This document shows, piece after piece, positions 36,400-57,650 of a DNA stretch of 64,000 bases. Position numbers and translations under genes: made by a program. Numbering within the stretch: the stretch's first letter is position 1; each line of letters opens with the position of its first letter. Under the pieces are notes generated by a model. That model made no database searches. It was given only the letters and a program-made list of their open reading frames with translations, and was not told the DNA's origin. The DNA comes from Halobacteriovoraceae bacterium (lineage in GTDB: Bacteria > Bdellovibrionota > Bacteriovoracia > Bacteriovoracales > Bacteriovoracaceae), in the NCBI GenBank assembly GCA_963719505.1, contig CAVRCF010000002.1, forward strand, positions 256,001 to 320,000, read 5' to 3'.

Positions 36400-39300
36400 T
36401 TAAGCTTTTCGATAACTTTGTATCTTTCTAAGGTATGTCTGCGGTGCATTTAAATAGTAAGCACCTGAATAGACGAGCCACTCATAGATTTTTGTTGGCG
36501 CGATATCAGGTTTTTTATCAATGACATCATAGGCAAAACAATGAAACTTTTGACCATTGTCGTCATAGGCGTCAATTTCAATTCTCTGGTAACCATTGTC
36601 ATCGCACTCAATTTTATCTAAAAAGGCGAGGTCATAGTCGTCGATACTGATCACAAGGCCATAGACTTCATGGCCAGAAGCTTCATACATATCGGCCACG
36701 CCACCGCCTCGGATATCAGAATAGCGAGTATAGCGAATTTCTTTATCGAGCACTTTTGCCTTACAGATAAGTTCTGAACTTGGACAACGATTTTTTATTT
36801 GTGAAAGATCCATGTTTGAGCCAAAACCAAAAACAAGATTTTTTAAAATGGGTTTACTCTTTGCATATCCGCCGCCTCCAGGAGTGCTAATGAAGATAGC
36901 TTCATCCGTCAAAAAGTCCCTTTGAAAACTCTCTGGAAGTTCAATAAGTTTTCCCGCCTCTTCAATTTGATTAAGCCCTCTTTTTGCCATGCCTCCGCCT
37001 TTTATTCCATGAGGAGGAATTTCTCTGGCCTGAGTCAGCATGCTCACTTGCATAGGTTCTAAAAATCGTAGACGTCTGTATATTCCATCGCCACCGTTAA
37101 ATTGTCCTGCACCACCACTTCCATGTCTAATCGCCATCAGCTCCAGTCTAACCGGATAGCGCATCTCTAAAACTTCAGGGTCTGTTAATAGGGAGTTGGT
37201 CATATTGACTTGAACAGCTGAGGCACCATGATTTGTTTGAGAGGCCCCACTTCCTCCGCCAATCGTTTCATAGTACTGATGGTTATCATTTCCAAAAGTT
37301 AAATTATTCATTGTCCCCTGACAGTGGGCTTTTATGTCGAGGACTTCAAAAATGACGTCACATAGGGCTTGAGATGTTTCTACATTCCCCGCCACGATGG
37401 CGCTATCAAGACTGGGGGACAGCAGGCTATCTTTAGGAATAAGAAGCTCCACGGCCTGCATGATTCCATTATTGAGGGGAATATTCTCATTGATCAAGCA
37501 GCGCAGACAAAAAAGTAATGTGGCTTTAACAACCGGTATAGGAGCATTAAAATTATTATCTTGAATAGGAGAGGTCCCATTGAAATCAAAGATAAACTTA
37601 TCCTGTGACTTTTTAATCTCTAAAGTAATTTGTCTTTGGTCGGTGATATGTTTAGTAATTTTTTTGGGTTTAATATCTTTTAGCGCCAATTGAATTTTTT
37701 TAAAAGAGTAGGACAGAATCTCGTTAGACATTGTGTCGAGATAATCACTGCCATAGAGTTTCGCGAGATCTTTAATCTCTTGTGCCCCTTTTAAATTAGC
37801 AGAGAGCTTGGCCTGTATATCGTGCTTATTGAGTTGGTAGTTTCTAACGGGGTACTCAACTTGCGTGAGAATACTTTTTAATTTTTCTTTGTTTAGTTTT
37901 CCAAAATCAGAAATCAAAGTTGGGGCAATCACCACGCCCTCTTCGGAGAGTTTTTTGCTATCTCCTGGCATTGAGCCCGGAGTGGTTCCGCCAATATCAG
38001 CGTGATGTCCTCTTGAAGCCACCCACATAATGAGTTTATTGTTTTCAAAAATAGGGGTTATAATTGTAATATCTGGTAGGTGAGTTCCTCCATAATGGGG
38101 AGAGTTTGTAATAAAACTATCACCTTCTTTGAAAGAGAAATCTTTTATCAGTGACTTTACAGCATCTCCCATGGATCCCAAATGAACAGGGATATGAGGA
38201 GCATTGGCCACAAGTTCTCCCCCAGCAGTGAAAAGAGCGCAAGAGAAGTCCGCCCTCTCTTTTATATTAACGGAACGTGCGAGCTTTTGAAGACTTTGTC
38301 CCATCTGCTCTGCGATAAATTGAAAGCGCTGATAAAAAATTTCAAGCTCAACGGCTTTATCTCTTTTTTGCGCTTTATTTTTTGTTTCAATATTTTGTAT
38401 TTTCCATGAACCGTCACTAAAGTTTTTCGCCTGCCAGCCGCGCTCCACAATAATGGAGGTGTTATTTTCGGCCAAGGAATGAAAACCATTTATTTCCTTT
38501 TCAGGATTGGATGGAAGATTTACAGGTTGAGTTACAGACTTTAAAATCCTGACACTAATTGTTTCGCACTCAACCTGTGTTGGCGCTTCAAGTCCGAAAG
38601 TTCTCTCATATTCTTTTTGAAAAAGAGTTTTTGCAGACTCTAAGTTTTCAGCTTTTATGGGGATTTCGTGATCACTTCCAATGGATTTAAGCATGAAAAT
38701 ATTTTCAAAACTAAATTCAGAAAAAGCAAAGGCGCCCTTCGCTCTCTCTCGAAGGACTTTATGTCCCACCTCAAGCTTATCGCTAAAGACCATTGCATGA
38801 TCGGCCACGCCGATGCCATAAGCTGATAAAACGGCGCTGAAGGGGTGAGTGAAGACTTCTTTTATACTGAGGCTTTCAGCAACTTTTATCGCAAGTTGCC
38901 CACCGGCTCCACCAAAACTGACCAGACAGAAATCTTGGGGATCAAAGCCCGACTCAATAGAGACTTTCCTAATCGCGCGAGACATGGTCTCCACAGCAAC
39001 ATCTAAAAATCCCTGGGCAATATCTTTGGGATCCATTTGGGTGGTTAAAGAAAGCTCTTGGAATTTTTCTTCAACGATTTTTATATCTAATCCTTGATCT
39101 CTTTTTGGTCCAAAGACTTTTGGAAACTTTTCTGGATCAAGACGCTTTAAAAAAAGATTGGCATCAGTGACAGTAAGGGGACCACCATTTCTGTAACAAG
39201 CAGGTCCTGGGTAGGCACCGGCTGAATCAGGTCCCACGATAAAGCGTCCATGATCAATGGATAAAACGGATCCACCACCAGCGGCAACCGTATGAATGTC

Positions 39301-40233
39301 GGCCATCGGGGTGAGAAGTTTATGGCCGTAAAAATTTGGTTCAGAATTAATTTTTAAATCCCCATGATAGAGGGCCACATCAGTTGAGGTACCACCCATA
39401 TCAAAAGTGATAATTTTATCTATTCCCTTATCTTTTGCCGCTTTGATAGCGCCAATTAATCCTCCAGCAGGACCAGACAAAAGAGCGCTGTAGCCTTTTA
39501 AGTCTTCACCTCGACAAAGACTTCCATCCGATTGCATATAGTAGATATTTTCAATTCCTAAAAGGTTAGATAGCTCACTGGTGTATTGCTGTAAAAAGGG
39601 AGTGAGATAACTATCGATCACGGTGGTCTCGGTGCGACTAATATATTTTGCTTTAGGACTAACCTCACAGGAGACACTGACAAAATCAAATCCCATCTCA
39701 GTGGCCAATTCTTTTAGCGCCATTTCATGTTGAGGATTTACTGTTGAGTGCATCAAAGAGATGGCCAGTGATTTTATCCCAAGGTCAAGAATTCTTTGAA
39801 ACTCAAAACGAGCGATATCTAAATCTAGAGGAATAAGCACTTTACCATTAGCATCCATTCTTCCTTGAATATGTGTGACTTCTTTATAGAGAGGTTTTTT
39901 CTTTTTTATATCAATAGCAAAAAGATCATCTCTATTTTGTTGTTTAATCTCTAAAACATCTCGGTGACCTAAAGTGGTGACAAGCGCACAGTCGATCCCT
40001 TTTTTTTCTAAGAAGGCATTTGTTGCGATAGTCGTTCCAAGTCTGAGCTCTTTGATACTGTCTTTGAAGTTATTGTGTCCAAGGATATCTTCAATGCCCT
40101 GAGCGACGACTGATTTGTAGTGGGGGGATTTTGACAGGAGCTTATGCACCTTGTGCGCTCCAGCATTGTTTACCGCAATAATATCGGTGAAGGTTCCTCC
40201 GCAGTCAATCCAGAATGTCCATTGATCTTTCAT
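36400..40233 (-). CDS. oplA: ATP-dependent 5-oxoprolinase (hydantoinase A+B) fused to a C-terminal gamma-glutamylcyclotransferase domain
   Basis: DCGGTFTD, SGPAGG, DMGGTSTD, HIPVHLGSM, GGTHLPD and TPGGGGY, then FGFGSNM...RCP...GGGVAD...LDKIE. Confidence 0.9.
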   Translation of the reverse strand: MKDQWTFWIDCGGTFTDIIAVNNAGAHKVHKLLSKSPHYKSVVAQGIEDILGHNNFKDSIKELRLGTTIATNAFLEKKGIDCALVTTLGHRDVLEIKQQNRDDLFAIDIKKKKPLYKEVTHIQGRMDANGKVLIPLDLDIARFEFQRILDLGIKSLAISLMHSTVNPQHEMALKELATEMGFDFVSVSCEVSPKAKYISRTETTVIDSYLTPFLQQYTSELSNLLGIENIYYMQSDGSLCRGEDLKGYSALLSGPAGGLIGAIKAAKDKGIDKIITFDMGGTSTDVALYHGDLKINSEPNFYGHKLLTPMADIHTVAAGGGSVLSIDHGRFIVGPDSAGAYPGPACYRNGGPLTVTDANLFLKRLDPEKFPKVFGPKRDQGLDIKIVEEKFQELSLTTQMDPKDIAQGFLDVAVETMSRAIRKVSIESGFDPQDFCLVSFGGAGGQLAIKVAESLSIKEVFTHPFSAVLSAYGIGVADHAMVFSDKLEVGHKVLRERAKGAFAFSEFSFENIFMLKSIGSDHEIPIKAENLESAKTLFQKEYERTFGLEAPTQVECETISVRILKSVTQPVNLPSNPEKEINGFHSLAENNTSIIVERGWQAKNFSDGSWKIQNIETKNKAQKRDKAVELEIFYQRFQFIAEQMGQSLQKLARSVNIKERADFSCALFTAGGELVANAPHIPVHLGSMGDAVKSLIKDFSFKEGDSFITNSPHYGGTHLPDITIITPIFENNKLIMWVASRGHHADIGGTTPGSMPGDSKKLSEEGVVIAPTLISDFGKLNKEKLKSILTQVEYPVRNYQLNKHDIQAKLSANLKGAQEIKDLAKLYGSDYLDTMSNEILSYSFKKIQLALKDIKPKKITKHITDQRQITLEIKKSQDKFIFDFNGTSPIQDNNFNAPIPVVKATLLFCLRCLINENIPLNNGIMQAVELLIPKDSLLSPSLDSAIVAGNVETSQALCDVIFEVLDIKAHCQGTMNNLTFGNDNHQYYETIGGGSGASQTNHGASAVQVNMTNSLLTDPEVLEMRYPVRLELMAIRHGSGGAGQFNGGDGIYRRLRFLEPMQVSMLTQAREIPPHGIKGGGMAKRGLNQIEEAGKLIELPESFQRDFLTDEAIFISTPGGGGYAKSKPILKNLVFGFGSNMDLSQIKNRCPSSELICKAKVLDKEIRYTRYSDIRGGGVADMYEASGHEVYGLVISIDDYDLAFLDKIECDDNGYQRIEIDAYDDNGQKFHCFAYDVIDKKPDIAPTKIYEWLVYSGAYYLNAPQTYLRKIQSYRKA

Positions 40234-44287: not shown

Positions 44288-46973
44288 ATGATTAGAACCT
44301 TAATTTTTATCCATTTTCTTATAGCTTTTAGCTCCTGTTCGAGTCCTTCGACTGAAGGGGATGATGGACTTATCACCGGTGGTGATACCAATATGGGAAC
44401 TATTTCTAAAATTGATGGGATCTATCTTTTAGAGCCACTTGTAAGTCCTGGTGCAGATCCAACTCCCTTAATTAATATCACAGGTGTCGCCTCTGGCGAT
44501 ACCGTTTCAGTTTTTAGCGATATTACATGTTCTACTTTGGTAACGTCTGAAATGGCGACGGGGGAGACGGTTGAAGTCTCTATTCCGACATTAACGATTG
44601 GAACGCATAGATTCTATGCCAAAAGAACAAAAGAGTCAGAGAGTAGAAGCTCAGACTGTTCCACTTTATTTTTAGACTACACTTTGGAAGGTATTTCAAT
44701 TACCGGCGTAGAGGATGATCTTACAGCTGCCATGAGCAAAACCTTCACATGGGGTTGTGCAGGAACCGCTTCGTGTGAGTATCGATTTGCTGTGAATACC
44801 AGTGAAACTTTTGAGTTCTCAACTGAAAGCTTTGATGCCACTACAACCACGACATACTCAAGTGGCTCCGGAGATTTTTATATTCATCTTCAAGCCCGCG
44901 ACTCAAGTGACAACACTATTGAAAGTGGAGTTTATAGTTATCAATTTGTTTTGGATAATACCTCTCCAGTCGTTACAGCGAACACTATTGCAGCTGGTAC
45001 TTATGGAGTTACAGATATGGTCGAAGTCAGTGTTAATTTTGACGAGAATATTCTCGTGACAGGAAGCCCTAGAATTCAATTAAATTTTGAAACTGAATCT
45101 GCTTCACCGACCTACGCCGTTTATGCAAGCGGTAGCGGATCACAGACACTTGTTTTTCAATACACTGTCGCTTTAGGTGACGAAGATACAAATAATATTT
45201 CAAGCCAAGCTTCAATTGATGTAAACGATGGGACTCTCACTGACGAATTAGGAAATGAACTCAACTATACTTTAGCGACAACAAGCTACAGTGATGCTTT
45301 TGTCGATGGAATCTCTCCAAGCATAATAAGTATAACAGTTCCGGCCAATACTTACTTCTTTGGGAGAAACGCTACCTATTACTGTGAATTACTCAGAAGC
45401 GGTTGTGGTTACTGGTGAACCAAGAATTGAATTAAACTTTGAATCACAGTCGAGTTCTCCCATTTTTGCCACATACGGGGCAGGCAGCGGAACAAGCTCT
45501 TTAACTTTTAATTATATTATCGCCAGTGGTGACTTTGATGCCAACGGAATTGATCTTGTCTCGACCATAGATTTAAACGGTGGCTCACTGGCTGATTCTG
45601 CTGGAAACAATGCGACGACAACCTTAACATCGACAAATTTCTCAAGTGTTTTAGTCGACTCACAAGCTCCCTACATAACCTCTTTTGTCGAGCCGGCCAA
45701 TGGAACTTACGCCAATGGGGGAGAGCTTTTATTTCAAGTCAACTTCTCTGAAGCCGTCACTATTAGTGGAACTCCAAAAATTGGTATTAACCTTGGCGGA
45801 TCAACTGTCTTTGCCACTTATCAATCGGGTTCAGGCAGTACGGGACTCGAGTTTAGCTATGCCATTGTTGCTGGAGACTCAGACAGTGATGGTATTACAC
45901 TCATAAGCACTAGTGTCGACGTAAGCACAGGTTCAATAACGGCAGTGAGCGATTCTAATCCTTCGGCACTAGACTTTCAAGCTTACCTAAACTCCATGAG
46001 TGGAGTCCTTATTGATACAAGTGGTACTATTACCGCTCCCGATCAGGTTATGGGGGTAACAACAGCTCCGACAACTGATAGTAGTGAGCTGAGGGTTTCT
46101 TGGTTAAAAGCAAATGGAAATGGCTTTGATATTATTAATTATAGTGTTCAATATCGTGAACAGGGAACGAGTACGTGGAATAGTTTAAATCCTAATCCAG
46201 TAAATAACTCGGCGACCATTAGTGGGCTCTCCGCTGGTGTGATTTATCAGATCAGAGTCGCAGCAAATAACGGACTTCTCGGTGCATACTCAGCGATATC
46301 AAATGCTGAGATTTTTGATATTCTTCAACTCAATCCTATCGCCTGGTTAAGTGCTACAGATATAACTAATGGTGGGAGTGAACCTTTAAACGATGAAAAA
46401 ATTGATCAGTGGGAAGACATTACGGGGGCTGCAAGTGCGGCAACAGAGACGAACCCAGCCAATCAGCCAGTTTACAAAACAAATGTTCAAAACGGTCTTC
46501 CAGGAGTTCGCTTTGATAATTTAGCGACGGGACTGCAGGGAACGTTTAATCGAAGTATAGGGACGGATTTAACTTTTGTTATCGTCGGTCAGTTCGATAC
46601 AGGCTCAAATGATAAATGTCTTTTTGAGTTCAGTAACGGTGGAAATGCCAGAGGATTTTTTATCGACAGAAGATATGCTAGTAACAACATGTTTTCTCCG
46701 GCTTTAACTCGAGGTGAATTTAAACTTTGGAGAATTCAAGATACAGGAACCACAGCGAAGGTAACCGAAAATGGAGTTACCGAGCTCTTTTCTGGTGGCA
46801 CAAACTTTAATACCGATTTCACTGGGACGGGTAGCTATACTCTTGGAGATGACCAAACAGGTGGAAATAGAATGAATGGCTTTATTGGAGAGTTTTTAAT
46901 TTTCGACAAAGCTCTTTCAGCTTCAGAGATTTCAAAGCTTGAAACCTACCTAAAAAATAAGTGGGGCCTTTAG
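44288..46973 (+). CDS. Large surface lipoprotein with Ig-like repeats, Fn3 and LamG/ConA-like C-terminus; one frameshift at ~45360
   Basis: Lipobox FSSC; three ~117-aa repeats (V.F.E.V...G.P.I...A.Y.SGSG...L.F.Y...GD.D); Fn3 W...YSVQYR...YQIRVAA; C-terminal GFIGEFLIFDKALS..EI..LE.YL..KWG. Confidence 0.8.
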
Positions 46974-48184
46974 TGGTTGAGTTTAAAATACTGACTTGTC
47001 ATCTCTTGTAGTTGGGGTGTCCACTGAGGTGAGAATCCATTCATAAGAGCTTTTTTTCTTAAGTCTACAATAATCGGTAACAGCTTTGTTTGAAGCTTTC
47101 TGTAGTACTTATTTTTAAACTGATTATTATAAGCAAAAAACTCCTCCATAATTTTACTTTCCCAAAGTTCAAAAAAGATAAGAGGAGACACACTGGTTGG
47201 CAGGTTTGAAAACAAGTGTTGGGTGTGTTCTGGAGAGTTGGAGTTGAGGAGGCTAGAAACCCACAGGGTTAGCTCTTCTCCTAGGCTTCGGGACTCTAAG
47301 TCAATTTTTGCTCTTTCAAATCTATCCGTAAGCTCATCTGTTTGGCCAAGCTTGAGAAGTTCATCAAGGATTAATTTGGCTTTAAGTTGTTTATTAATCT
47401 TAGCTTCTTTTATGAGCTTCAGTCTTGTTGTTTTAATTTCATTTTTTCGCATAAAGATCATGAGGTTTTTATAGTCGAGTCTATTTCGATACAGTCCAAC
47501 GATCTTTAAAGTGTCGTTAAAAATATTACTGGGTTTTACAATATAATTTTCTTCATCCAAAGTGTATGAGATGTCATTACTTCCCTTCTTTAGTTTGAGC
47601 TCTTTTTTTACTTTTCTTTCTGAGTCTTTCCACTTTCTATAAAGGACTTTGTTGTTAAAAAGTCTTTTCATCTTTATTGTTTTTGCGATATTTTTAATAC
47701 CAATGATTATAGCTGGTATTAGTATTCCCGGCTGTAAAACCTCATACAAAACGATGAGGACTGGAGAACCAATACTAACGGCCAAAGCTTTCATCGGAAT
47801 TTCTGTGATCTCTATAGTCATAATAATAATAGAGATGGCCAATCCATTTTTCCGGCTAAGAATTTTAGCTTCTTCTTTTATATGGTGAACCATCTCTTTG
47901 ACTTTTTCCCAGGCTGAGCTTTTTTGGTAATGAGAATTTGATTCTATGTCGGCCATAATTTTTTGGGCCAGGGAGTCGATGATAGCATCGTTATACTTTG
48001 GATCGATACTGTCTTCAATTCCTTTGATACTCTCGTATTGTTTATGAAGAATCTCGTTTTGAAGTTTTATTCTCTCAAGGCTCAAGAGGAGATCGTCATC
48101 AATTGGAGCATGAGAATAACTACCAGCAAAACTAGATGAGATAAGCGATAGGAATAAGGCCAACTTGATAAAAATATTTAACAT
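46970..48184 (-). CDS. Hypothetical membrane-associated protein
   Basis: 404-aa ORF with signal peptide and central hydrophobic segments. Confidence 0.7.
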   Translation of the reverse strand: MLNIFIKLALFLSLISSSFAGSYSHAPIDDDLLLSLERIKLQNEILHKQYESIKGIEDSIDPKYNDAIIDSLAQKIMADIESNSHYQKSSAWEKVKEMVHHIKEEAKILSRKNGLAISIIIMTIEITEIPMKALAVSIGSPVLIVLYEVLQPGILIPAIIIGIKNIAKTIKMKRLFNNKVLYRKWKDSERKVKKELKLKKGSNDISYTLDEENYIVKPSNIFNDTLKIVGLYRNRLDYKNLMIFMRKNEIKTTRLKLIKEAKINKQLKAKLILDELLKLGQTDELTDRFERAKIDLESRSLGEELTLWVSSLLNSNSPEHTQHLFSNLPTSVSPLIFFELWESKIMEEFFAYNNQFKNKYYRKLQTKLLPIIVDLRKKALMNGFSPQWTPQLQEMTSQYFKLNH

Positions 48185-49580: not shown

Positions 49581-50183
49581 ATGAAAAAAGTCCATTTTTT
49601 ACTATTTTTATTATTTGTCGGATGTGGTCATGGCAAATTGGAATTTCAATCTTTTCCTGAGAAGGCTGATGTCTCTTTCGTAGAACGAGACGGGCAGGTT
49701 AAAAAGCTTGGTCAAACACCCTTAGACCTTAAGATGGAAGACGACTTCTTTAGAGACGGTGCGGTAAAGCTTATCTTTTCTAAAGTTGGTTATAGGGATG
49801 AAGTTGTTTATTTAACCAAGCCAGCTCTTCAGTCTAATGTGAAAATTTCCACAAAGATGCAAGAAGCCGGAAGTGCCAAAGAAATTATTTCAAATCAAAG
49901 GTTGGAGGAACTTTCAAATAAAATAGCTGAAGCTCAAAGATTTAGTTTTGGAAAAAACTATAAAAGAGCTGAGACGATTTTAATAAAAGTTATTGATGAC
50001 TTTCCAGACGTCAGTGTTCCTTATGATCTTTTAGCAAATATTTACTATTTATCTAATCAGACTAATAAAGCTTTGTACTTTTATGAAAAGGCAAAGGGGA
50101 TTGCTCCGGGCAACCCTCAAAGAGACTATTTAATTAATAAGCTGAAACGCGTTGATGGAAGCTTAGAGGACACGCAACTATGA
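49581..50183 (+). CDS. Lipoprotein with PEGA-like domain and TPR repeats
   Basis: Lipobox FVGC; SFPEKADV...LGQTPL...FSKVGY; TPR PYDLLANIYY...KALYFYEKA. Confidence 0.8.
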   Translation: MKKVHFLLFLLFVGCGHGKLEFQSFPEKADVSFVERDGQVKKLGQTPLDLKMEDDFFRDGAVKLIFSKVGYRDEVVYLTKPALQSNVKISTKMQEAGSAKEIISNQRLEELSNKIAEAQRFSFGKNYKRAETILIKVIDDFPDVSVPYDLLANIYYLSNQTNKALYFYEKAKGIAPGNPQRDYLINKLKRVDGSLEDTQL

Positions 50184-50953
50184 AAATCATTTTAGGTTTT
50201 TTCATTATCTCAACCGGCTTTTATATAGCTTTGGATCACTTAAATCAAAGTATTGGTCAGTTTTGGGACGTCATTGCTTTTGCAATGGTTGTCTTTGGAA
50301 CGGTAGCCGTTAGTGTTATGACGATGCCTTCTTTAAAGATTAGACATACCCTTAATATATTTCTCAAAGGTGTTGGAAATAACCACGGTCTCAGAGAAGA
50401 CTGTATTCAAAACTCTTTAAATCTGATTAAAGGTCATGAGCCAAGTGGTGATATTAAGAGAATAGATCAAAAGATTTTAGTCGATGGTCTTGAACTTTTA
50501 CGTTTGGGATTTTCAACTGAAAAAATTCAAGACATCCTCGTCGAAAGAATTGAAAAGTACACCGATGATAGCGTTACAGTGGCTCAGTGGATTAGAGGTT
50601 TATCAAAGTATCCACCAGCTTTTGGTCTTGCAGGAACGGTCATTGGGCTTATCCACCTTATGCAAGGTTTGAGTGAAGGTGCTGACCCAAAAGAGTCTGG
50701 TATAAGAATGGCCGTTGCGCTGGTCGCAACTTTCTATGGAATTGTCATGGCCAATATTTTGATCAACCCAGTTGGGGACAGAATGATGAGTAATATAAAA
50801 GAGGACCAAAACTTAGCAGAAATTTCTTTAAATGCGATTGTTATGATTAGTCAGAGAACAAACTATGTCGAGGCAATGGAGCAGATGAACAACCATGTAC
50901 CAAACCAGCATAAGAAGCTTAGCTTCAATTATGGTGCACTTGAGGCTTCATAG
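50180..50953 (+). CDS. motA: MotA/PomA-family stator subunit
   Basis: VVFGT, DGLELL, PPAFGLAGTVIGLI and MAVALVATFYGIVMAN...P motifs; ATGA overlap with upstream gene. Confidence 0.88.
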   Translation: MKIILGFFIISTGFYIALDHLNQSIGQFWDVIAFAMVVFGTVAVSVMTMPSLKIRHTLNIFLKGVGNNHGLREDCIQNSLNLIKGHEPSGDIKRIDQKILVDGLELLRLGFSTEKIQDILVERIEKYTDDSVTVAQWIRGLSKYPPAFGLAGTVIGLIHLMQGLSEGADPKESGIRMAVALVATFYGIVMANILINPVGDRMMSNIKEDQNLAEISLNAIVMISQRTNYVEAMEQMNNHVPNQHKKLSFNYGALEAS

Positions 50954-50955
50954 AT

Positions 50956-51642
50956 ATGAGAAAAGCTAAGATAAAAAAAATTCAAGCGCACGAAACTGAT
51001 ACTGAGGGATCCTGGGCCATAAGCTATGGGGATATGATTACTCTTCTTCTTAGTTTCTTTGTTATCTTTTTCTCTTTTGACTTCAAAAAAGAAAAGGAAG
51101 ATATCCTTGAAGAAAGTGCGATAAAGAATATTGCTGTGATGGATACATTTAAGGATAAAGAGACTGGTATTCATGAGAAACCATCAGAAACTATTGAAGA
51201 GCTTAACGAAATTACGACGATAGTAAAAAAAGAAAAAGATGGAAAGTTAGTTGTCTTTTTTAAAGGGGCAAACTTTTTTGACAGTGGTGACACTTCAGTT
51301 AATGAGTTTGGGCAAGTCTTGCTGACAAAATTTATTAAAAAATATACTCCTTACGCAGGTAAGTTTAGGGTGAAAATTCAAGCCTTCACTGATAGTCAGC
51401 CAGTTTCAAATCCAAGTCATCGCTATAAAGACAATGTCGAATTAAGTGCCTTGAGATCCATTTCAGTTATGAGATACCTTCAAAACAATGGAGTGCCTCT
51501 AAACCGAGTTGAGATTGGCGGAATGGGAATAATGTCAAAGAGAGCTTTAGCTGTGCTTGGACTTGAATCAAATAATGTTGAAGAAGTACGAAAAATGTCT
51601 AGAACAATAGCTTTAATATTGTTTCGCGAGGATGCATCATGA
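50956..51642 (+). CDS. motB: MotB/PomB-family stator subunit with OmpA-like peptidoglycan-binding domain
   Basis: WAISYGDMITLLLSFF with the conserved Asp; FDSG, FTD and NVELSALRS motifs. Confidence 0.9.
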   Translation: MRKAKIKKIQAHETDTEGSWAISYGDMITLLLSFFVIFFSFDFKKEKEDILEESAIKNIAVMDTFKDKETGIHEKPSETIEELNEITTIVKKEKDGKLVVFFKGANFFDSGDTSVNEFGQVLLTKFIKKYTPYAGKFRVKIQAFTDSQPVSNPSHRYKDNVELSALRSISVMRYLQNNGVPLNRVEIGGMGIMSKRALAVLGLESNNVEEVRKMSRTIALILFREDAS

Positions 51643-53345
51643 TGAATAAATTTACAACCTTTGCCTTTTTATTACTGGCCACTTTTGGCATGAGTAGTGC
51701 GAAAGCGGATAATGCACGGGTTATTGAAATCCAAGAGAAAATTAAAAGTGATATTTCTAGTTTTCTAGAAAAATTCTCTCCTAACACAAAGTATTCTGTG
51801 CAGGTTAAGGTTAAGCCGTTGAGGCGTCGATTTGATAAGTCTTCGCAAAGTGATAGTCTCCCTTTTATGGAATACCAAGATGATCTGATTTTAGATGAAT
51901 GGGACGACCCTAATACTAATATCTATTCACTTTACAGTCGTATTGCAGAAGCTCGTGTGTCAATCTTAATTGAAGACAAAGTTAAAATAGATAATAGAAG
52001 AAAGTTTAAAGAGGCGATCTTACAAGATGTGAATCTAATTCCAGGTAGAGATACTGTTGAGATTGAAGCCATTTCAACTCCTGTTTTAGAGAGCACTTTT
52101 AATTGGAAAGACCAAACTGAAATACTTCTCCTGGGTGTGATGCTTATTATTGCTGTGGTTTTAGGCGTAGGACTAAATTCCCTTTCAAAGAAGATCGTTC
52201 CCCAACAAGTAAGAAATGCTAGTGATAGTAAAGAATCAGCTCCATCATTTTCTGGAGCTGCTCCCGCTATGGCGTCAGCTCCTCAAAGTTCCGGGCCTAG
52301 TAAAAACAATTCTTTTGGTGAATTGAAAGGTGATCTCAATATTCAAGATCCCTCTAAAATAAATGAAGTCGTCGGAAAAAAGATTAACAAGTTATTAGAG
52401 TCAGAGGTTTTTCCTACGCTTGGAGATATGGTTATTCTTGAAGAGCTTTTAAAGAATGATCCTTCAAGTTTCAGTTACCTCGCTTTTGAATTCCCCCTAG
52501 AAGTTCAAAAGAGCATCTATCAGTTAGGACGAGGGGAGCAATGGTTTAAAGGTTTCTCTGAAGTAGGTTTCCCAAGTAAGGTGGTTTTAATTTCTCTAGA
52601 TAAAATGTTAAGAAATCGAACTGTTCATCAAAGTGAAAACTTTGAAAGCTTGCTTATTCACTCTTGGAGATTAGCAGCAAATTTAACACCATTTATTAAG
52701 ACGATGTCTAAGGAAGATGCATTTTCAATTCTTTATTTTCTTCCTAAAGATATATCAATACCTGTTGCTAGAGATTGCTTTCCTGGTTCGTGGGGAAGTA
52801 TCTTTGAAGAAAGAGCAACAACAACTTTAAAAGATGGACAAAAAATTCAAAAACTTCTAACTGAAGCTCTTAAACTTCAGCCTTACTTAAACTACGATTC
52901 ACTTCAGGTTTTTAAAAATAGAAAAGATCTTCTGTCCTATCTCGATACTGTTGAGCCACAAGATGAAAGAGACATCTATGCGGTCATGGGCGAACAAAAT
53001 GATCTTTCCTCTATTCGACCACCATTTTATACTTTTTTCGAATTAGAAAAAGAAGTCAGACAAAAAGTGTACTCAAAATTCTCTATGCAGGAATGGGCCG
53101 TGGCTTGTTTTAATATTGGGAGGCACGATAAAGATAAACTTACAGATCTGATGGATGAAAAAGAAAAATATCTTTTTAGTCATATTCTGAAAAATATTGA
53201 TCAAAATTCTCATCTTGCAGAAAACAAGGTTGAGATTAGGCATTCGATCGCCCATTTTGTTCATGAGAATCATTCACATAAAATGGTTGTGCCCGTTAAA
53301 GAAGTTGAAGGGATAGTCCAAGATGAACAAAATAATGTTGCCTAG
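51639..53345 (+). CDS. Putative FliF-like ring domain / FliG-like rotor fusion protein
   Basis: Signal peptide; aa ~28-146 resemble the FliF RBM3; TM at aa 162-179; aa ~345-545 resemble FliG middle and C-terminal domains (aligned by eye). Confidence 0.65.
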   Translation: MMNKFTTFAFLLLATFGMSSAKADNARVIEIQEKIKSDISSFLEKFSPNTKYSVQVKVKPLRRRFDKSSQSDSLPFMEYQDDLILDEWDDPNTNIYSLYSRIAEARVSILIEDKVKIDNRRKFKEAILQDVNLIPGRDTVEIEAISTPVLESTFNWKDQTEILLLGVMLIIAVVLGVGLNSLSKKIVPQQVRNASDSKESAPSFSGAAPAMASAPQSSGPSKNNSFGELKGDLNIQDPSKINEVVGKKINKLLESEVFPTLGDMVILEELLKNDPSSFSYLAFEFPLEVQKSIYQLGRGEQWFKGFSEVGFPSKVVLISLDKMLRNRTVHQSENFESLLIHSWRLAANLTPFIKTMSKEDAFSILYFLPKDISIPVARDCFPGSWGSIFEERATTTLKDGQKIQKLLTEALKLQPYLNYDSLQVFKNRKDLLSYLDTVEPQDERDIYAVMGEQNDLSSIRPPFYTFFELEKEVRQKVYSKFSMQEWAVACFNIGRHDKDKLTDLMDEKEKYLFSHILKNIDQNSHLAENKVEIRHSIAHFVHENHSHKMVVPVKEVEGIVQDEQNNVA

Positions 53346-53886
53346 TAAAAAGATCTTTCTTTTAGCCTTAAGTTTTTTAAGCTTAAGTGCGTTTGGTCAA
53401 AAGTTGTCACTTGGTGCTGGGGCTTATTCTTTAAGTGCAAAAGTTGGAGATAACGAAACATCCGTTTCAAATATAGGGGCTTATAGAATACAGTTCCATT
53501 CTAAAATCCAAGAGCAATTTGAATTTCTCCTTGGGTATAATATTCTTATAGAAAATATTTATAGTGGAGATAAAGCTTTCGGTCCATTTGTGGGCTTTAG
53601 CTACTATCCTTTTGGATCAGAGACTTCCTCTCATTCTTCTTTGTCTAATTTATCTATTTCGAGCATTAAACTTTTAAACCCTTATCTCTATACTGGTTTT
53701 AACCAGCGACAGTATCAATCGGTGAAGGCGACTTATTCTGGCTTCTCTTTTGGTGGTGGCGCAGAGATAGGTTTTAACAAAGAGGTGGCGTTCTTTGCAG
53801 ATATGCAGTACGCGATGCTTGATGGGCCAAACGAGGGTGAGGCGACTGAGTTTATGGGGATCGCTGGAATTATGTATCACTACTAG
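53323..53886 (+). CDS. Small outer-membrane beta-barrel protein (about 8 strands)
   Basis: Signal peptide; PYLYTG, GFSFGGGAEIGF, FFADMQY; ends GIMYHY. Confidence 0.75.
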   Translation: MNKIMLPSKKIFLLALSFLSLSAFGQKLSLGAGAYSLSAKVGDNETSVSNIGAYRIQFHSKIQEQFEFLLGYNILIENIYSGDKAFGPFVGFSYYPFGSETSSHSSLSNLSISSIKLLNPYLYTGFNQRQYQSVKATYSGFSFGGGAEIGFNKEVAFFADMQYAMLDGPNEGEATEFMGIAGIMYHY

Positions 53887-53969
53887 TCTTTTAGAAGAGG
53901 CAATTGCCACGATAAAATGGCAATAAAAGAGATGGTTTAGAGGTCTAAACTCTCTAAATTGTTGATAAC

Positions 53970-53997
53970 TTAAGAGAAACTTAATTCTAGCCGAAAG
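53970..53997 (+). promoter_or_regulatory. Sigma28 (FliA)-like promoter
   Basis: TTAAG-N15-GCCGAAAG immediately upstream of the 1214-aa lipoprotein. Confidence 0.5.
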
Positions 53998-54005
53998 GTC
54001 TTATA

Positions 54006-57000
54006 ATGAAAAATATGAAAATAATATCGTTACTCTTTTTTACTCTTTTCCTAACCGCTTCTTGTCAAGAAGGTGGGGATAAAGGGTTCTCAGGTCTTGA
54101 GGATTCTGTTGAAACAGTTGGTGACAGCACACCTACTGAGGTCGCAGTAGAAATTCGTTCGGTTTCACCAACGGTGAATCCCATCGTTCTAGTGGCCAAC
54201 AACACTCAAACTTTTGCCGTTCAAGTCAACAGTGGAGCGGGAGAGGTGACTTATACTTTTAAATTAGATGGATCTCTTTTACAAAACTCTAATTCACCTT
54301 TCTATAATTTAGAAGCTTCTGGACTTACATCTGGTAGCCATACTCTTGAAGTGACAGCAACAAACTCTCTTTCTAGTGATTCTCATACTTTTAACTTGAG
54401 AAAAAATACGGCTCCAGTCATAAGTTTAGATTCAAATACTTCACAAACAATCAGTTGTGTTTCGGATTCATTTCAATTGGATATTACAGCAGCTGATGCT
54501 GATGGGGATAGTTTAAGTTATGACTTTTATCTCAATGGCTCTGCCGGAAGTTCTTATTTAACGACAAGTACGGGGTTGAGTTCGGCGACTTTAGTCTTTA
54601 CTCCAAATTGTACTTTATCTGGCACAAGTAATGTCACTATTCGAGTGACAGACTCCCATGGAGAGTATGACGAATACACTATGGCCGTGACGGTTAGTAA
54701 TCCAAATATCGCGACCGTTGATTCTTATTCTCCAAGTGCAGACCCCGTTCAAGTTTTAAGTTCGGCCAGTCAAACTTTTAGTATCAGTGCTTCAGGAAAA
54801 GCGCCTCTCACTTACCAGTGGGAGCTTGATGGAGTTATCATAGGAACTGCTTTGGGTGCCATTCATACCCTTGCCTCTGGAGATATTACGGCAGGTGCTC
54901 ACACTTTAAAAGTAACGGTTAGTGATTCGGATAGTAGTGACTCCCATACTTTTAATATCGTTAAAAACGTGGCTCCAGTAATTTCTGGAGAGAGCCCCTC
55001 AGAGTCGTCAATAAAACAAAATTACGAAATTATAAAAACATTTTCGGTTGATGCAACTGATGCCAATAGCGATGCTCTAACCTTTACTTGGACCCTCAAT
55101 GGTGGTTCGAGCTCGACAATTGCAACCAGTAGATCAGGCAATACATCGTCCGCGATTTTTACCCCCACGGAATTAATTATCGGGAACCATACTTTAGCCG
55201 TAACAGTTAGTGATGGACTTGAAACAGACACTCATTCTTGGACTATTGCTGTCAATAGGTTTAGTACAGCCTGTAATGAACTTTCTCAAGGTGAGGTTTG
55301 TACAGTGGTTGGGCCAGTTGGTTTTAATAGTGGGGGAAGCACCGAAACAGCAAAAGCTCTAAGAGGTATTCCTCGATACATGACGAAAGACTCATTTGAT
55401 AATATGTATATTGCCGATACAGATAATCATGTCATTTGGTATTACAACTTCTCAATTGTGGACAGAACTGTTCATGGTATTGATGTGCCTGCTTATACAG
55501 CTAAAATTATCCTAGGAAATGGTGTTGCCGGACAAACGGTCGATGGAAGAAAAAATTCTGACTTTAAACTCAATAGCCCAAGAGACCTCGTTTATGATTC
55601 TGAGACTGATTCTCTCTTTGTTGCAGATTATTCAAATAACAGAGTTGTTCAACTTCTTTCGGATGGATCAGCAAGACAAGCCTTGTGTTACGGTGGAACG
55701 GCAAATAACGAAGCTTATAATGAAGATGGACTGGCGCTCACAAGATCTTGTTATGCTCCCATTGGTTTGGCATTAGATACGACTAATAGAAAAATTTATG
55801 TTGCCGTCTATGGCCACCATAATATTAAACAATTCGATATTAGTGATTCAGATTATACAAACTGGACCGGTGGTGTTTTGATTGGTCGAAAAAATGGCAA
55901 TGGCTCTGTTGCAGCTGGATACGATGATAATGGAGTTGCCTTTGGTTATACGGCTGGTGGTGCTCGTACTCAAAATCCTTGGGACCTCGAGTTGAATGCG
56001 GATGGATCGCTCTTATTTTTCACTGAATATGCTGGAGATAGATTAAAGGTTGCCAACCTCTCAAACTCAACAAAAACCCTCATCAATGGGACTCTCAGTA
56101 TTAGTGCTGGGCATATTAAAAAAGTAGTTGGAAATGGAGCCGGTGTTACCGAGGGAAATTATACTTCAGCGAAGATAGATCAGCCTATGGGGATAGCGCT
56201 GTTTGAAGATGCAGGAACTTTAAAAGGTATTTTTGTTGTCTCTTATAATAGACATGTTGTGAATTTCATCAACAACACGGCTTCAACTATCACCATCGGA
56301 GATACCGATGTCGCAGTAGAGCAACTTGGCTGGGTTTTTGGGGATAGAGGTGCCTATTATAATGGAGATGGAAATACTGGACGTCTCACAAGTATTTGGT
56401 CACCTCGCGGACTCGAAGTTATTGGAGACACATTGTATGTTTCAACTCTTTCAACGGCAATGGTGAGATCATTGGATATAAGTGTCAACGATGGAGATGT
56501 GGGGACAAAAGTTCACGCGGATGTTATTGAAGACTTTGTTAGTTCAAACAATCCAAATTCAGTTAGGCTTTTTAATCCAACTTATCTAGCTTCTCACCCA
56601 ACAAATAAAGAAATTTTTTGGGGAGAGGAAGGCAGTGGAAAGATTAGAAAATTTAACACTCAAACCGGCACTGTTAATGAAGTATTAGGACTTGGGCGCT
56701 CTCATCAAGATCAAGATATGCAAACAGCTGATAATATTTATAATCAAGGAATCAAAGGTCTCTCATTTCACAATGGACAACTCCTTTATGTCGATAGAAA
56801 TAATCCAACGGGAGTGGACCGTGCTTGTCGAGTGAGAGCTTTTAATCAATCTGGAAGCACTTCGACTTTCTTCGGTACTCCGATAGGGAATGGTTTAATT
56901 GGTATTGTTGCCGGAGACTGGACTAAAGGGTGTAATAATTGGGAAAATCTTGTTGGTGCCCAAGCGACAAGTGTTGCTATTAAATCACCCGAATCCATCG

Positions 57001-57650
57001 TTTCAGATGGAACAAATTTATATATTTCTAACCCTTATTCACATTGTATATTAAAAGTAGACTCTTCAGGTGTGATCTCTGAATTTTCAGGAGACTGTGA
57101 TTCTGCTGGTGATGTTCCTGGAGCAATAGGATCTACCTCAGTTCGCTACAGTTATCCTTCAGGTCTGTTTATGGATCCTGAATATCCAGGAAACATGTTT
57201 GTCGTAGATAGATCAAATATTTTTAACAGCAGTTATCTTAAATATATAAATCAATCAGGCTCTGACATAACAATCGCGGGAACTACCGTGCCAGCAGGTG
57301 ACGTTGCAACGATTTTTACGACCTCTGGTTTTACATCTACAGTGGCCGCTTACGGAAACTGGATTTGCTATAATTCAACCTATTTTCTAGGATATAACGA
57401 CGCCCGCGCTAACGATAACGTCAATTGTTTTGATAGAACGAATAATTTAGGCGTTGTGGCTTTCAGAATTGGAAATAGCGACAGCGATACAATTAAAGGT
57501 GGAAGGCAGTTGTCGGACGAATACGAAGGGGCCAACTCCTTATCAGTGAGACTTGCTAAACCGCTGGGGCTAGCTTTTGACGCCGACGGAAACCTTTACA
57601 TAACTGAAGTTATTGGAAACACCATCAAGATGGTTAAGCGCTGGTACTAA
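54006..57650 (+). CDS. Large surface lipoprotein/adhesin with four Ig/cadherin-like domains and NHL beta-propeller repeats
   Basis: Lipobox LTASC; repeated G.HTL.VT.S....D.HT[FW]; NHL repeats such as LNSPRDL..D...LFVADYSNNRV and LAKPLGLAFDADGNLYITE. Confidence 0.85.
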   Translation: MKNMKIISLLFFTLFLTASCQEGGDKGFSGLEDSVETVGDSTPTEVAVEIRSVSPTVNPIVLVANNTQTFAVQVNSGAGEVTYTFKLDGSLLQNSNSPFYNLEASGLTSGSHTLEVTATNSLSSDSHTFNLRKNTAPVISLDSNTSQTISCVSDSFQLDITAADADGDSLSYDFYLNGSAGSSYLTTSTGLSSATLVFTPNCTLSGTSNVTIRVTDSHGEYDEYTMAVTVSNPNIATVDSYSPSADPVQVLSSASQTFSISASGKAPLTYQWELDGVIIGTALGAIHTLASGDITAGAHTLKVTVSDSDSSDSHTFNIVKNVAPVISGESPSESSIKQNYEIIKTFSVDATDANSDALTFTWTLNGGSSSTIATSRSGNTSSAIFTPTELIIGNHTLAVTVSDGLETDTHSWTIAVNRFSTACNELSQGEVCTVVGPVGFNSGGSTETAKALRGIPRYMTKDSFDNMYIADTDNHVIWYYNFSIVDRTVHGIDVPAYTAKIILGNGVAGQTVDGRKNSDFKLNSPRDLVYDSETDSLFVADYSNNRVVQLLSDGSARQALCYGGTANNEAYNEDGLALTRSCYAPIGLALDTTNRKIYVAVYGHHNIKQFDISDSDYTNWTGGVLIGRKNGNGSVAAGYDDNGVAFGYTAGGARTQNPWDLELNADGSLLFFTEYAGDRLKVANLSNSTKTLINGTLSISAGHIKKVVGNGAGVTEGNYTSAKIDQPMGIALFEDAGTLKGIFVVSYNRHVVNFINNTASTITIGDTDVAVEQLGWVFGDRGAYYNGDGNTGRLTSIWSPRGLEVIGDTLYVSTLSTAMVRSLDISVNDGDVGTKVHADVIEDFVSSNNPNSVRLFNPTYLASHPTNKEIFWGEEGSGKIRKFNTQTGTVNEVLGLGRSHQDQDMQTADNIYNQGIKGLSFHNGQLLYVDRNNPTGVDRACRVRAFNQSGSTSTFFGTPIGNGLIGIVAGDWTKGCNNWENLVGAQATSVAIKSPESIVSDGTNLYISNPYSHCILKVDSSGVISEFSGDCDSAGDVPGAIGSTSVRYSYPSGLFMDPEYPGNMFVVDRSNIFNSSYLKYINQSGSDITIAGTTVPAGDVATIFTTSGFTSTVAAYGNWICYNSTYFLGYNDARANDNVNCFDRTNNLGVVAFRIGNSDSDTIKGGRQLSDEYEGANSLSVRLAKPLGLAFDADGNLYITEVIGNTIKMVKRWY

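Follow-up and report, generated by a model that had tools for sequence, protein, structure and literature searches.

A candidate self-contained rotor-stator operon built from flagellar motor parts in a Halobacteriovoraceae bacterium

A 64-kb stretch of the genome of a Halobacteriovoraceae bacterium, a Bdellovibrio-like predator, carries at positions 49581..57650 six genes on the same (+) strand, which code, in order, for a TPR lipoprotein, the stator subunits MotA and MotB, a protein of 568 amino acids (aa), a small beta-barrel and a large Ig/NHL lipoprotein; the whole stretch is hereafter called the window, and the gene set the cassette. In the 568-aa protein, a domain resembling the ring-building motif (RBM) RBM3 of FliF, a transmembrane (TM) helix and a FliG-like domain ending in FliG_C are naturally fused, as indicated by family profiles, hhalign comparisons, an AlphaFold2 (AF2) model and fold searches. 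On balance, the evidence slightly favours the view that the operon is a self-contained rotor-stator module made from flagellar motor parts and employed outside the flagellum, in which a ring of the fusion protein would be turned by MotAB. No rotor-stator pair besides FliG with MotAB is known for the flagellar motor, and the pair has been taken to occur nowhere outside flagella. An operon that is conserved and that holds a flagellar-type stator, a fused rotor and outer-membrane partners, with no export apparatus, rod, switch or filament, would mean that the torque-generating core can function by itself in another role.

The FliF/FliG-like fusion protein

Homologues of the 568-aa protein number 48 in a 90%-clustered collection, while 203 representative clusters of a 50%-clustered library match it at E<=0.001 and 137 of these at E<=1e-30; nearly all members of the family are 550-600 aa long, and the few that are named come from Halobacteriovoraceae or Bdellovibrionales. 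Two profiles represent the family in what follows, namely A1, built from 31 sequences, and A2, a widened alignment of 117 sequences, with which a second homologue search retrieved no further relatives. In the C-terminal part, FliG_C (PF01706) is the top Pfam match in 12 of the 15 most distant full-length homologues and passes the Pfam gathering cut-off in four of them (24.1-31.0 bits, best 3.3e-7), always at residues ~450-560, and 11 of 31 closer members match it at E<=1; MgtE_N or FliG_M give weak matches only, in a few members. The A1 profile recovered no FliG from the PDB. Searched against 177,635 PDB sequences, the A2 profile returned 12 matches at E<=10, the top six of which are all FliG (1qc7 with E 1.6e-4, followed by 1lkv, 4fhr, 3ajc, 3usy and 3usw) and fall on profile positions 464-545.

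Profile-profile comparison extends the likeness to both ends of the protein. Against 10 FliG sequences, an initial hhalign run fell short of significance (E 0.086), which was reached only with the 117-sequence profile, compared with alignments of 11 FliF and 12 FliG sequences from the phylum plus E. coli. In this comparison, FliF is matched by the periplasmic part with E 8e-5 and a probability of 61%, residues 100-151 falling on E. coli FliF 372-433, which is the last strand-helix-strand of RBM3; the family-invariant R137-D138 pair aligns with the FliF R-G-D, and a second, collinear but weak match places residues 31-57 on FliF 238-264. The C-terminal part matches FliG with E 2.5e-4 and the entire cytoplasmic part with E 1.4e-3, while the middle part of FliG taken alone is not significant (E 0.056-0.097), and the position of EHPQ, from the FliM-binding motif EHPQR, is not conserved in an alignment that has low confidence there. 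Cross controls gave E 0.22 and 0.45, and column shuffles (60, 60 and 40) reached maximum scores of 20.2, 18.3 and 19.3 against real scores of 37.5, 31.3 and 31.9. PF01514 (YscJ_FliF), which covers the RBM1-RBM2 region, has no match on the 568-aa protein, and the whole-genome search finds only the canonical fliF. As a lead only, the protein-language-model neighbours of one homologue (P0029) all carry FliG_C, FliG_M, FliG_N, MgtE_N or YscJ_FliF_C. Further afield, other genomes of the phylum encode bitopic proteins of 554, 773 and 628 aa in which FliG_M and FliG_C exceed the Pfam cut-offs, beside a TPR lipoprotein, MotA and MotB; A2 aligns to two of them, with E 3.2e-4 (182 columns) and E 1.8e-3. 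In the subfamily described here, FliG is recognisable by profile and fold only.

The AF2 model of the fusion protein, built from A2, has a mean pLDDT of 85.4, with 394 residues at 90 or above. It comprises a hydrophobic N-terminal helix that is a signal peptide or membrane anchor (1-23), a periplasmic domain (24-148), a TM helix (156-186), and, on the cytoplasmic side, a disordered linker (187-237) and an all-helical domain (238-549). The periplasmic elements are a helix (26-46), a strand (52-60), a loop (61-94), a helix (95-101), a strand (102-112), a helix (120-130) and a strand (138-145), and their alpha-beta-beta-alpha-beta order is that of a ring-building motif. The 34-residue loop, which bears a conserved LP[FY]...DEWDDP motif, occupies the place of the FliF beta-collar.

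Fold searches retrieve the same two flagellar proteins. With the whole model as query, Foldseek places nothing but FliG and FliF at ranks 1-22 of 350,542 chains, and realignment of the Foldseek list with VIA-align leaves FliG or FliF in the top 27 rows. Residues 19-148 superpose on Salmonella FliF 228-438 with Z 9.4-9.9 and a root-mean-square deviation (rmsd) of 3.0-3.4 A over 94-100 residues, and the RBM domain matches Vibrio FliF 255-452 with Z 10.4, the rmsd ranging over 3.0-3.6 A across the FliF matches. At the other end, residues 460-548 match T. maritima FliG_C (1qc7) with Z 9.8 and an rmsd of 2.4 A over 87 of 101 residues, whereas residues 329-550 match structures of the FliG middle and C-terminal parts with Z ~10 and an rmsd that is large owing to domain orientation. 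A wide search of 48,161 PDB representatives, run independently of Foldseek, returned seven chains at Z >=8, all FliG or FliF (1qc7 scoring 8.3); the next rows are other ring-building proteins, that is, SpoIIIAF (7.7), EscJ (7.5), PrgK (6.8) and SpoIIIAG (6.7). An earlier, sequence-only reading of the window had proposed this protein as a single-TM, fused FliF/FliG rotor candidate, and its likeness to FliF and FliG is confirmed in both structure (Z 9.4-10.4 and 9.8) and profile (hhalign E 8e-5).

The residues through which FliG meets the stator are partly traceable. K508 aligns with R281 of E. coli FliG in both hhalign and HMMER alignments, and the column is K or R in 116 of the 117 family members; at position 515, the column of FliG D288, 77 of the 117 have E or D, and the D289 column is variable in the same set. 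On the stator side, the cytoplasmic residues D102, E105, R123 and K143 are invariant or nearly so in 14 cassette MotAs, and some of these charged residues may pair with those of the rotor.

The extreme C-terminus of the fusion family has a feature of its own. Nearly all members (107 of 117) end in alanine (AA in 77, VA in 20, SA in 7, IA in 2 and TA in 1), the last codon here being at 53343-53345 and the end cytoplasmic; several MotAs of related cassettes likewise end in -AA or -VA. These ends are reminiscent of ssrA-like ClpXP tags.

Stator, conservation and envelope partners of the operon

The stator assignments are straightforward at family level. The 257-aa protein matches MotA_ExbB (PF01618) with E 1.3e-19, and the 228-aa protein matches MotB_plug (2.1e-10) and OmpA (2.9e-10) in Pfam, the conserved aspartate of MotB being D26, within the YGDMITLL of the TM segment. 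In the cassette MotA, the prolines equivalent to E. coli P173 and P222, which belong to the TM3/TM4 channel, are kept, and the loop length is PomA-like in the alignment. The best NCBIfam matches of the 257-aa protein are flagellar motor and PomA models and lie far under the cut-offs, the score being 89.1 bits against an equivalog cut-off of 237 for MotA; the MotB protein scores 76 against 283. The genome holds 10 MotA/ExbB-family matches, all of which entered a quick IQ-TREE phylogeny (LG+G4, 41 rows) together with 13 cassette MotAs, 3 from the FliG-domain cassettes, 12 from other phylum genomes, and, as named references, E. coli MotA, TolQ and ExbB. The cassette MotAs group with E. coli MotA and with the flagellar-type stator of the same genome (C5:1149751), apart from TolQ/ExbB (SH-aLRT 99), in a clade whose internal branching order is poorly supported and which contains several long branches. 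Judged from sequence, and because the cut-offs of the flagellar NCBIfam models are missed, the cassette MotAB is a separate lineage of flagellar-type stator and not an ordinary orthologue of the flagellar stator.

The core of the operon is conserved among related loci of the phylum. A search of 200 other phylum genomes with the A1 profile gave 16 clear matches to the 568-aa protein and one marginal match (G193, E 7.9e-4), and within the same family the cassette occurs in 4 of 35 genomes. Loci were compared for 13 of the 16 clear matches, leaving out two genomes (G086 and G087) in which the match lies at a contig end and one (G111) in which it is partial with a stop codon. The order TPR lipoprotein-MotA-MotB-fusion-barrel is kept in all 13 loci, which come from 8 families of the phylum, and the five-gene core is inherited as one block; the genes that flank the cassette in the window are not kept in these loci. 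A homologue of the large lipoprotein adjoins the core in 12 of the 13, with variable place and strand: 7 loci have it downstream, 2 as the leading gene of the operon and 2 upstream in divergent orientation, and one locus has two copies. The co-conservation of all six genes, which the sequence-only reading put up for checking, stands for the five-gene core, and for the sixth gene as an adjacent neighbour at varying places. Within this subfamily of cassettes, the large Ig/NHL lipoprotein counts as an accessory component. In one genome (G098, L027:12180-15184, - strand) its homologue is split into overlapping open reading frames (ORFs) of 623 and 421 aa, for which a frameshift or an assembly error is possible.

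The canonical flagellar genes of the same genome, whose completeness is 83.5%, lie elsewhere, with fliF at C3:23351, fliG at C3:25610, fliM at C3:293519 and the flagellar-type stator at C5:1149751, and the cassette is on a different contig from fliF, fliG and fliM. The expectation that separate fliF, fliG and flagellar stator genes would be found in the genome is thereby borne out, and the cassette MotAB accordingly has its own rotor partner within the operon.

The outer-envelope partners were assigned from their families as well as from the single proteins. The 200-aa protein alone has weak TPR matches in Pfam; TPR is found in 14 of 14 members of its family and PEGA, weakly, in 7 of 14 (best E 0.0083), and Cys15, which follows the signal peptide, is invariant in all 14. 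Its AF2 model (pLDDT 84.7) comprises a seven-strand beta domain (19-92) and TPR helices (99-198), and the TPR part, which is the part covered by the fold search, matches designed and natural TPR chains with Z 12-14, as generic TPR only. The lipoprotein is probably anchored in the outer membrane. The 187-aa protein has a signal peptide and alternating strand patterns, and matches OMP_b-brl with E 0.0044 on its own; within its family OMP_b-brl is found in 10 of 14 members (best 5.9e-7) and Opacity in 5 of 14, so that it is probably, from these sequence matches, a barrel of the 8-stranded OmpA/Opa kind. The 1214-aa protein has a signal peptide ending in Cys, as do 12 of 12 homologues beside related cassettes, and most of these homologues end in an NHL blade with ...KRW[YWF].

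The layout of the locus is compact (Table 1). Adjacent genes overlap by 4 nt at 50180 and at 51639 and by 23 nt at 53323, and are separated by a 2-nt gap at 50954-50955 and by a 119-nt gap before 54006; the overlap sequence at 50180 and 51639 must be ATGA because the ATG start lies over a stop codon that begins with TG. The ORF list agrees exactly with the six-gene layout, coordinates, overlaps and gaps of the sequence-only reading, and its protein assignments also hold, namely the PEGA/TPR lipoprotein (with PEGA weak), MotA and MotB with its conserved aspartate, the small beta-barrel, and the Ig/NHL lipoprotein 119 bp after the barrel gene. The same is true of its statement that the window contains no flh/fli export, rod, hook, flagellin, fliM/N or che gene: among the 53 ORFs of at least 110 aa scanned with Pfam (11 at E<=0.01 and 42 at E<=1e-5), no flagellar, export/type III, hook, flagellin, FliM/N or Che family was found. 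The GC content across the cassette is 0.36-0.41, like the rest of the window; Rfam gave no match at the gathering score in the window, and promoter-like and terminator-like sites are no commoner than in shuffles.

Table 1. Coordinates of the cassette genes and of two domains of the fusion protein in the window
Feature	Position	Strand	Basis or content
TPR lipoprotein, 200 aa	49581..50183	+	beta domain 19-92 (PEGA-like), TPR domain 99-198
MotA-type stator A subunit, 257 aa	50180..50953	+	four TM segments, PomA-length cytoplasmic loop
MotB-type stator B subunit, 228 aa	50956..51642	+	TM with Asp26, plug, OmpA-like peptidoglycan-binding domain
FliF-RBM3/FliG-like fusion protein, 568 aa	51639..53345	+	profiles, AF2 model, fold searches
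Ring-building-motif (RBM3-like) domain of the fusion	51708..52082	+	FliF fold and hhalign matches
FliG_C-like domain of the fusion, residues 460-548	53016..53282	+	1qc7 fold match, PDB profile search
Small outer-membrane beta-barrel protein, 187 aa	53323..53886	+	OMP_b-brl/Opacity family matches
Ig/NHL lipoprotein, 1214 aa	54006..57650	+	PKD, Big_9, Cadherin_5, Ig_3, NHL, TEN_NHL (Pfam)

Shortly before the cassette come a 537-aa fibronectin-III/LamG-like protein (45360-46973, + strand) and a 404-aa protein devoid of any family (46970-48184, - strand), neither of which is kept in the 13 related loci. Elsewhere in the window, a 1277-aa ORF (36400-40233, - strand) combines hydantoinase/oxoprolinase A and B domains with a C-terminal gamma-glutamyl cyclotransferase-like (GGACT/AIG2) domain.

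Outside the window, the same genome holds a second locus of the same layout with almost no sequence likeness (C2:12781-20996, corresponding to L032:5782-13997). Its parts are a 179-aa barrel-like protein, a 196-aa protein with a signal peptide, a MotA of 240 aa, a MotB of 198 aa, a 168-aa ORF on the opposite strand, a 512-aa protein with a signal peptide, a periplasmic part, a TM segment and a cytoplasmic part ending in -VA, and a 1101-aa TIG/Ig protein. The closest paralogues of the cassette MotA and MotB are the two encoded at this locus (8.7e-20 and 1.5e-17). The 512-aa protein was considered as a homologue of the 568-aa protein and this was not supported (BLASTP E 1.3, hhalign E 0.033, and weak matches only in the phylum search). 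The gene of the 512-aa protein and the start of the Ig gene are contained in a 2.5-kb repeat whose copies (C2:15986-18472 and C2:29667-32153) share 98.6% identity and lie 13.7 kb apart.

FliG-type domains also recur in other settings. Contig C1 of this genome codes for two stand-alone proteins of ~140 aa with FliG_C only (L034:5041-5463, + strand, 1.4e-15; L035:5440-5865, - strand, 4.2e-11), one of which adjoins a cyclic-nucleotide-binding protein, and similar short FliG_C proteins are found repeatedly in the phylum, as are long ones (570-805 aa). In another genome (G008), a cyclic-nucleotide-binding protein (L069:7039-7557, - strand, 7.2e-16) is encoded between the FliG-domain membrane protein and MotA, which hints at second-messenger control of that cassette variant.

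The proposed rotary module and its alternatives

If the operon is a rotor-stator module, its parts could cooperate as follows. The RBM domain would assemble the fusion protein into a ring in the inner membrane, as RBM3 does in the S-ring of FliF, whose own ring has ~33-34 subunits, and a ring of FliG_C domains would hang under the inner membrane. MotB would anchor MotAB to the peptidoglycan, and ion flow through MotAB would push the torque helix and turn the ring, through proposed contacts between K/R508 and E515 of the rotor family and the conserved D102, E105 and R123 of MotA. The TPR lipoprotein and the barrel may form the outer-membrane side, either as a scaffold of the stator or as a link to the load, and in this subfamily the large Ig/NHL lipoprotein would be the best candidate for a load or client; the output may tentatively be guessed to be movement of, or force on, an outer-membrane or surface protein. 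The uses raised by the sequence-only reading, namely surface motility, prey attachment and adhesin export, would be candidate outputs, and a MotA5B2 stoichiometry and a surface-exposed, adhesive large lipoprotein are likewise hypothetical. Polar motors have accessories, such as MotX/MotY, PflA/PflB and FlgO/FlgP, that are possible parallels for the TPR lipoprotein and the barrel. The more specific version of this proposal, a miniature non-flagellar rotary motor in which an RBM3-FliG ring is spun by MotAB and coupled via the TPR lipoprotein and the barrel to a large Ig/NHL lipoprotein of the outer membrane, is put forward tentatively, with a chance well short of even.

Several observations weigh against a rotary module. 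On the side of the rotor, the 568-aa protein on its own matches no Pfam (E<=0.01), NCBIfam or PADLOC family and has no FliG match of its own in Pfam; the hhalign probabilities are moderate (61, 43 and 17%), the Foldseek E-values are weak (best 0.04), and the Z of ~10 for the helical repeat falls below the caution line of 13 given for the tool. Residues 238-328 lie outside the coverage of the fold search and are unassigned to FliG_N, and the periplasmic part is one domain of ~125 residues, a single RBM that lacks RBM1, RBM2 and the beta-collar. With regard to the interface, position 515, the equivalent of FliG D288, is His in this protein and not acidic, and in an unreliable stretch of the alignment the MotA columns of E. 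coli R90 and E98 show no conservation; both ring formation and the contact with MotA are inferred from homology alone. Moreover, the cassette lacks a rod, an export gate and a FliM/N partner, and no route by which torque would be transmitted outward is therefore recognised. Lastly, canonical FliF is present in 17 of 17 cassette-bearing genomes (this one included) as opposed to 27 of 41 in the phylum sample, a distribution that also fits a role linked to the flagellum.

The absence of a rod or axle, together with the single small periplasmic domain of the fusion protein, the presence of parts in every envelope layer and a client-like large lipoprotein co-located in 12 of 13 loci, would suit a non-rotary energy transducer. 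In such a device, MotAB would dock on the FliG-like domain only as an anchor or adaptor, and the proton-driven stator movement would be passed via the bitopic protein to the TPR lipoprotein and the barrel, energising an outer-membrane process such as the surface exposure of a lipoprotein, tethering or remodelling, much as Tol-Pal or ExbBD-TonB do and with no turning ring. This explanation is considered unlikely, given that the cassette MotA belongs to the MotA clade and not with TolQ/ExbB, that the B subunit is a peptidoglycan-anchored MotB and not of the TolR/ExbD type, and that no TolA- or TonB-like protein is part of the cassette; the fusion protein, in addition, keeps both the ring-building and the driving module, RBM3 and FliG_C, the latter being basic at the site of R281 in nearly every family member.

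A flagellar accessory, in which the single polar flagellum would be tuned by an alternative stator that the cassette provides along with a decoy or storage rotor, or by a structure of the pole or sheath, is regarded as rather improbable. The universal occurrence of canonical FliF in the cassette-bearing genomes and the flagellar type of the MotA are in keeping with it, as is the precedent of several stators per flagellum in this group, three motAB pairs being described for the one flagellum of Bdellovibrio (Morehouse 2011, as cited in the available text of PMC13689555). However, the cassette has a FliF/FliG-like partner of its own, it is not on the contig of fliF, fliG and fliM, and its five core genes travel together with no flagellar gene nearby, either in the window or in the 13 loci; its distribution is also patchy (4/35 same-family genomes and 17/200 of the phylum sample), whereas flagella are common. 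The refutation foreseen by the sequence-only reading, that this MotAB simply serves the flagellum, is accordingly opposed by the rotor partner within the operon and by the separate flagellar stator, and retains in its favour that all 17 cassette genomes are flagellated.

A Zorya-like anti-phage system on a MotAB-type channel is scarcely credible, as the PADLOC ZorB models that match MotB (best 2e-13) do so as generic ZorB/MotB-type matches, PADLOC gives nothing on the other five proteins, the 257-aa MotA lacks a long tail and has no ZorA match, no ZorC, ZorD, ZorE or other effector family was found by PADLOC on any of the six proteins, and the partner is FliF/FliG-like.

Relation to known systems

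If the rotary module is real, predatory bacteria would possess an envelope machine of a new type, and it would be either a living relative of a pre-flagellar rotor or a stripped-down re-use of it. It would bear on the origin of the flagellar motor (rotor first versus secretion first) and on the envelope machinery that predators deploy at the prey surface; with six genes, and with related cassettes in cultured-type genomes of the phylum, it is directly testable. No description of a non-flagellar FliF-FliG/MotAB cassette was found in the literature as far as the available texts extend, and the supplements of PMC12505986 may list this MotAB lineage. That work classifies MotAB homologues as FIT/GIT (PMC12505986). 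Of the features of the FIT group, the cassette shows the MotA_ExbB channel, the TM3/TM4 prolines, the MotB plug, Asp and OmpA-like domain, and placement in the MotA clade.

With the other 5:2-type ion-driven systems, Tol-Pal (TolQR), ExbBD-TonB, AglRQS-Glt, GldLM-T9SS and Zorya, the cassette shares a channel of the MotA/ExbB family coupled to envelope partners. It differs from Tol/Ton in that its MotA is outside the TolQ/ExbB clade and its B subunit is a MotB with a peptidoglycan-binding domain, and no TolA, TonB, Glt, Gld or Zor partner family was detected on the six proteins by Pfam, NCBIfam or PADLOC. The MotA clade, the type of MotB and these undetected partner families led Zorya, Tol/Ton and the gliding systems to be set aside as the identity of the cassette. 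The earlier view that it is organised unlike the flagellum, Tol/Ton, Agl-Glt, Gld/T9SS and Zorya agrees with the partner families and with a MotA clade placed against E. coli MotA, TolQ and ExbB as references.

The closest natural parallel to the fusion protein is in Chlamydiaceae, where a FliF-FliG fusion of ~330 aa comprises two TM segments, an RBM2-like part and, of FliG, a FliG_M-like part only (Bergeron 2016, PMC4768692). It occurs in a bacterium with an injectisome, and no MotAB partner is described for it in the available text of that paper (PMC4768692). Both proteins covalently link a truncated periplasmic portion of FliF with a cytoplasmic domain like FliG. The protein described here differs in its RBM3-like periplasmic portion, in possessing FliG_C and in having MotAB encoded within its operon. 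Fusions of FliF and FliG engineered in Salmonella and Vibrio are reported to assemble into rings and to function in flagella.

The flagellar motor core itself shares with the cassette an RBM3-like domain before a TM helix, a FliG-like helical domain that ends in FliG_C with a basic residue at R281, and a MotA/MotB pair with channel prolines, Asp, plug and OmpA-like domain. The cassette differs in that the ring and FliG are in one polypeptide lacking RBM1, RBM2 and the beta-collar, and in that FliM/FliN, export apparatus, rod, hook and filament genes are missing from it, while the genome has, apart from it, a complete set of fliF, fliG and fliM. In their place, the partners of the cassette are the PEGA/TPR lipoprotein, the small outer-membrane barrel and the large Ig/NHL lipoprotein.

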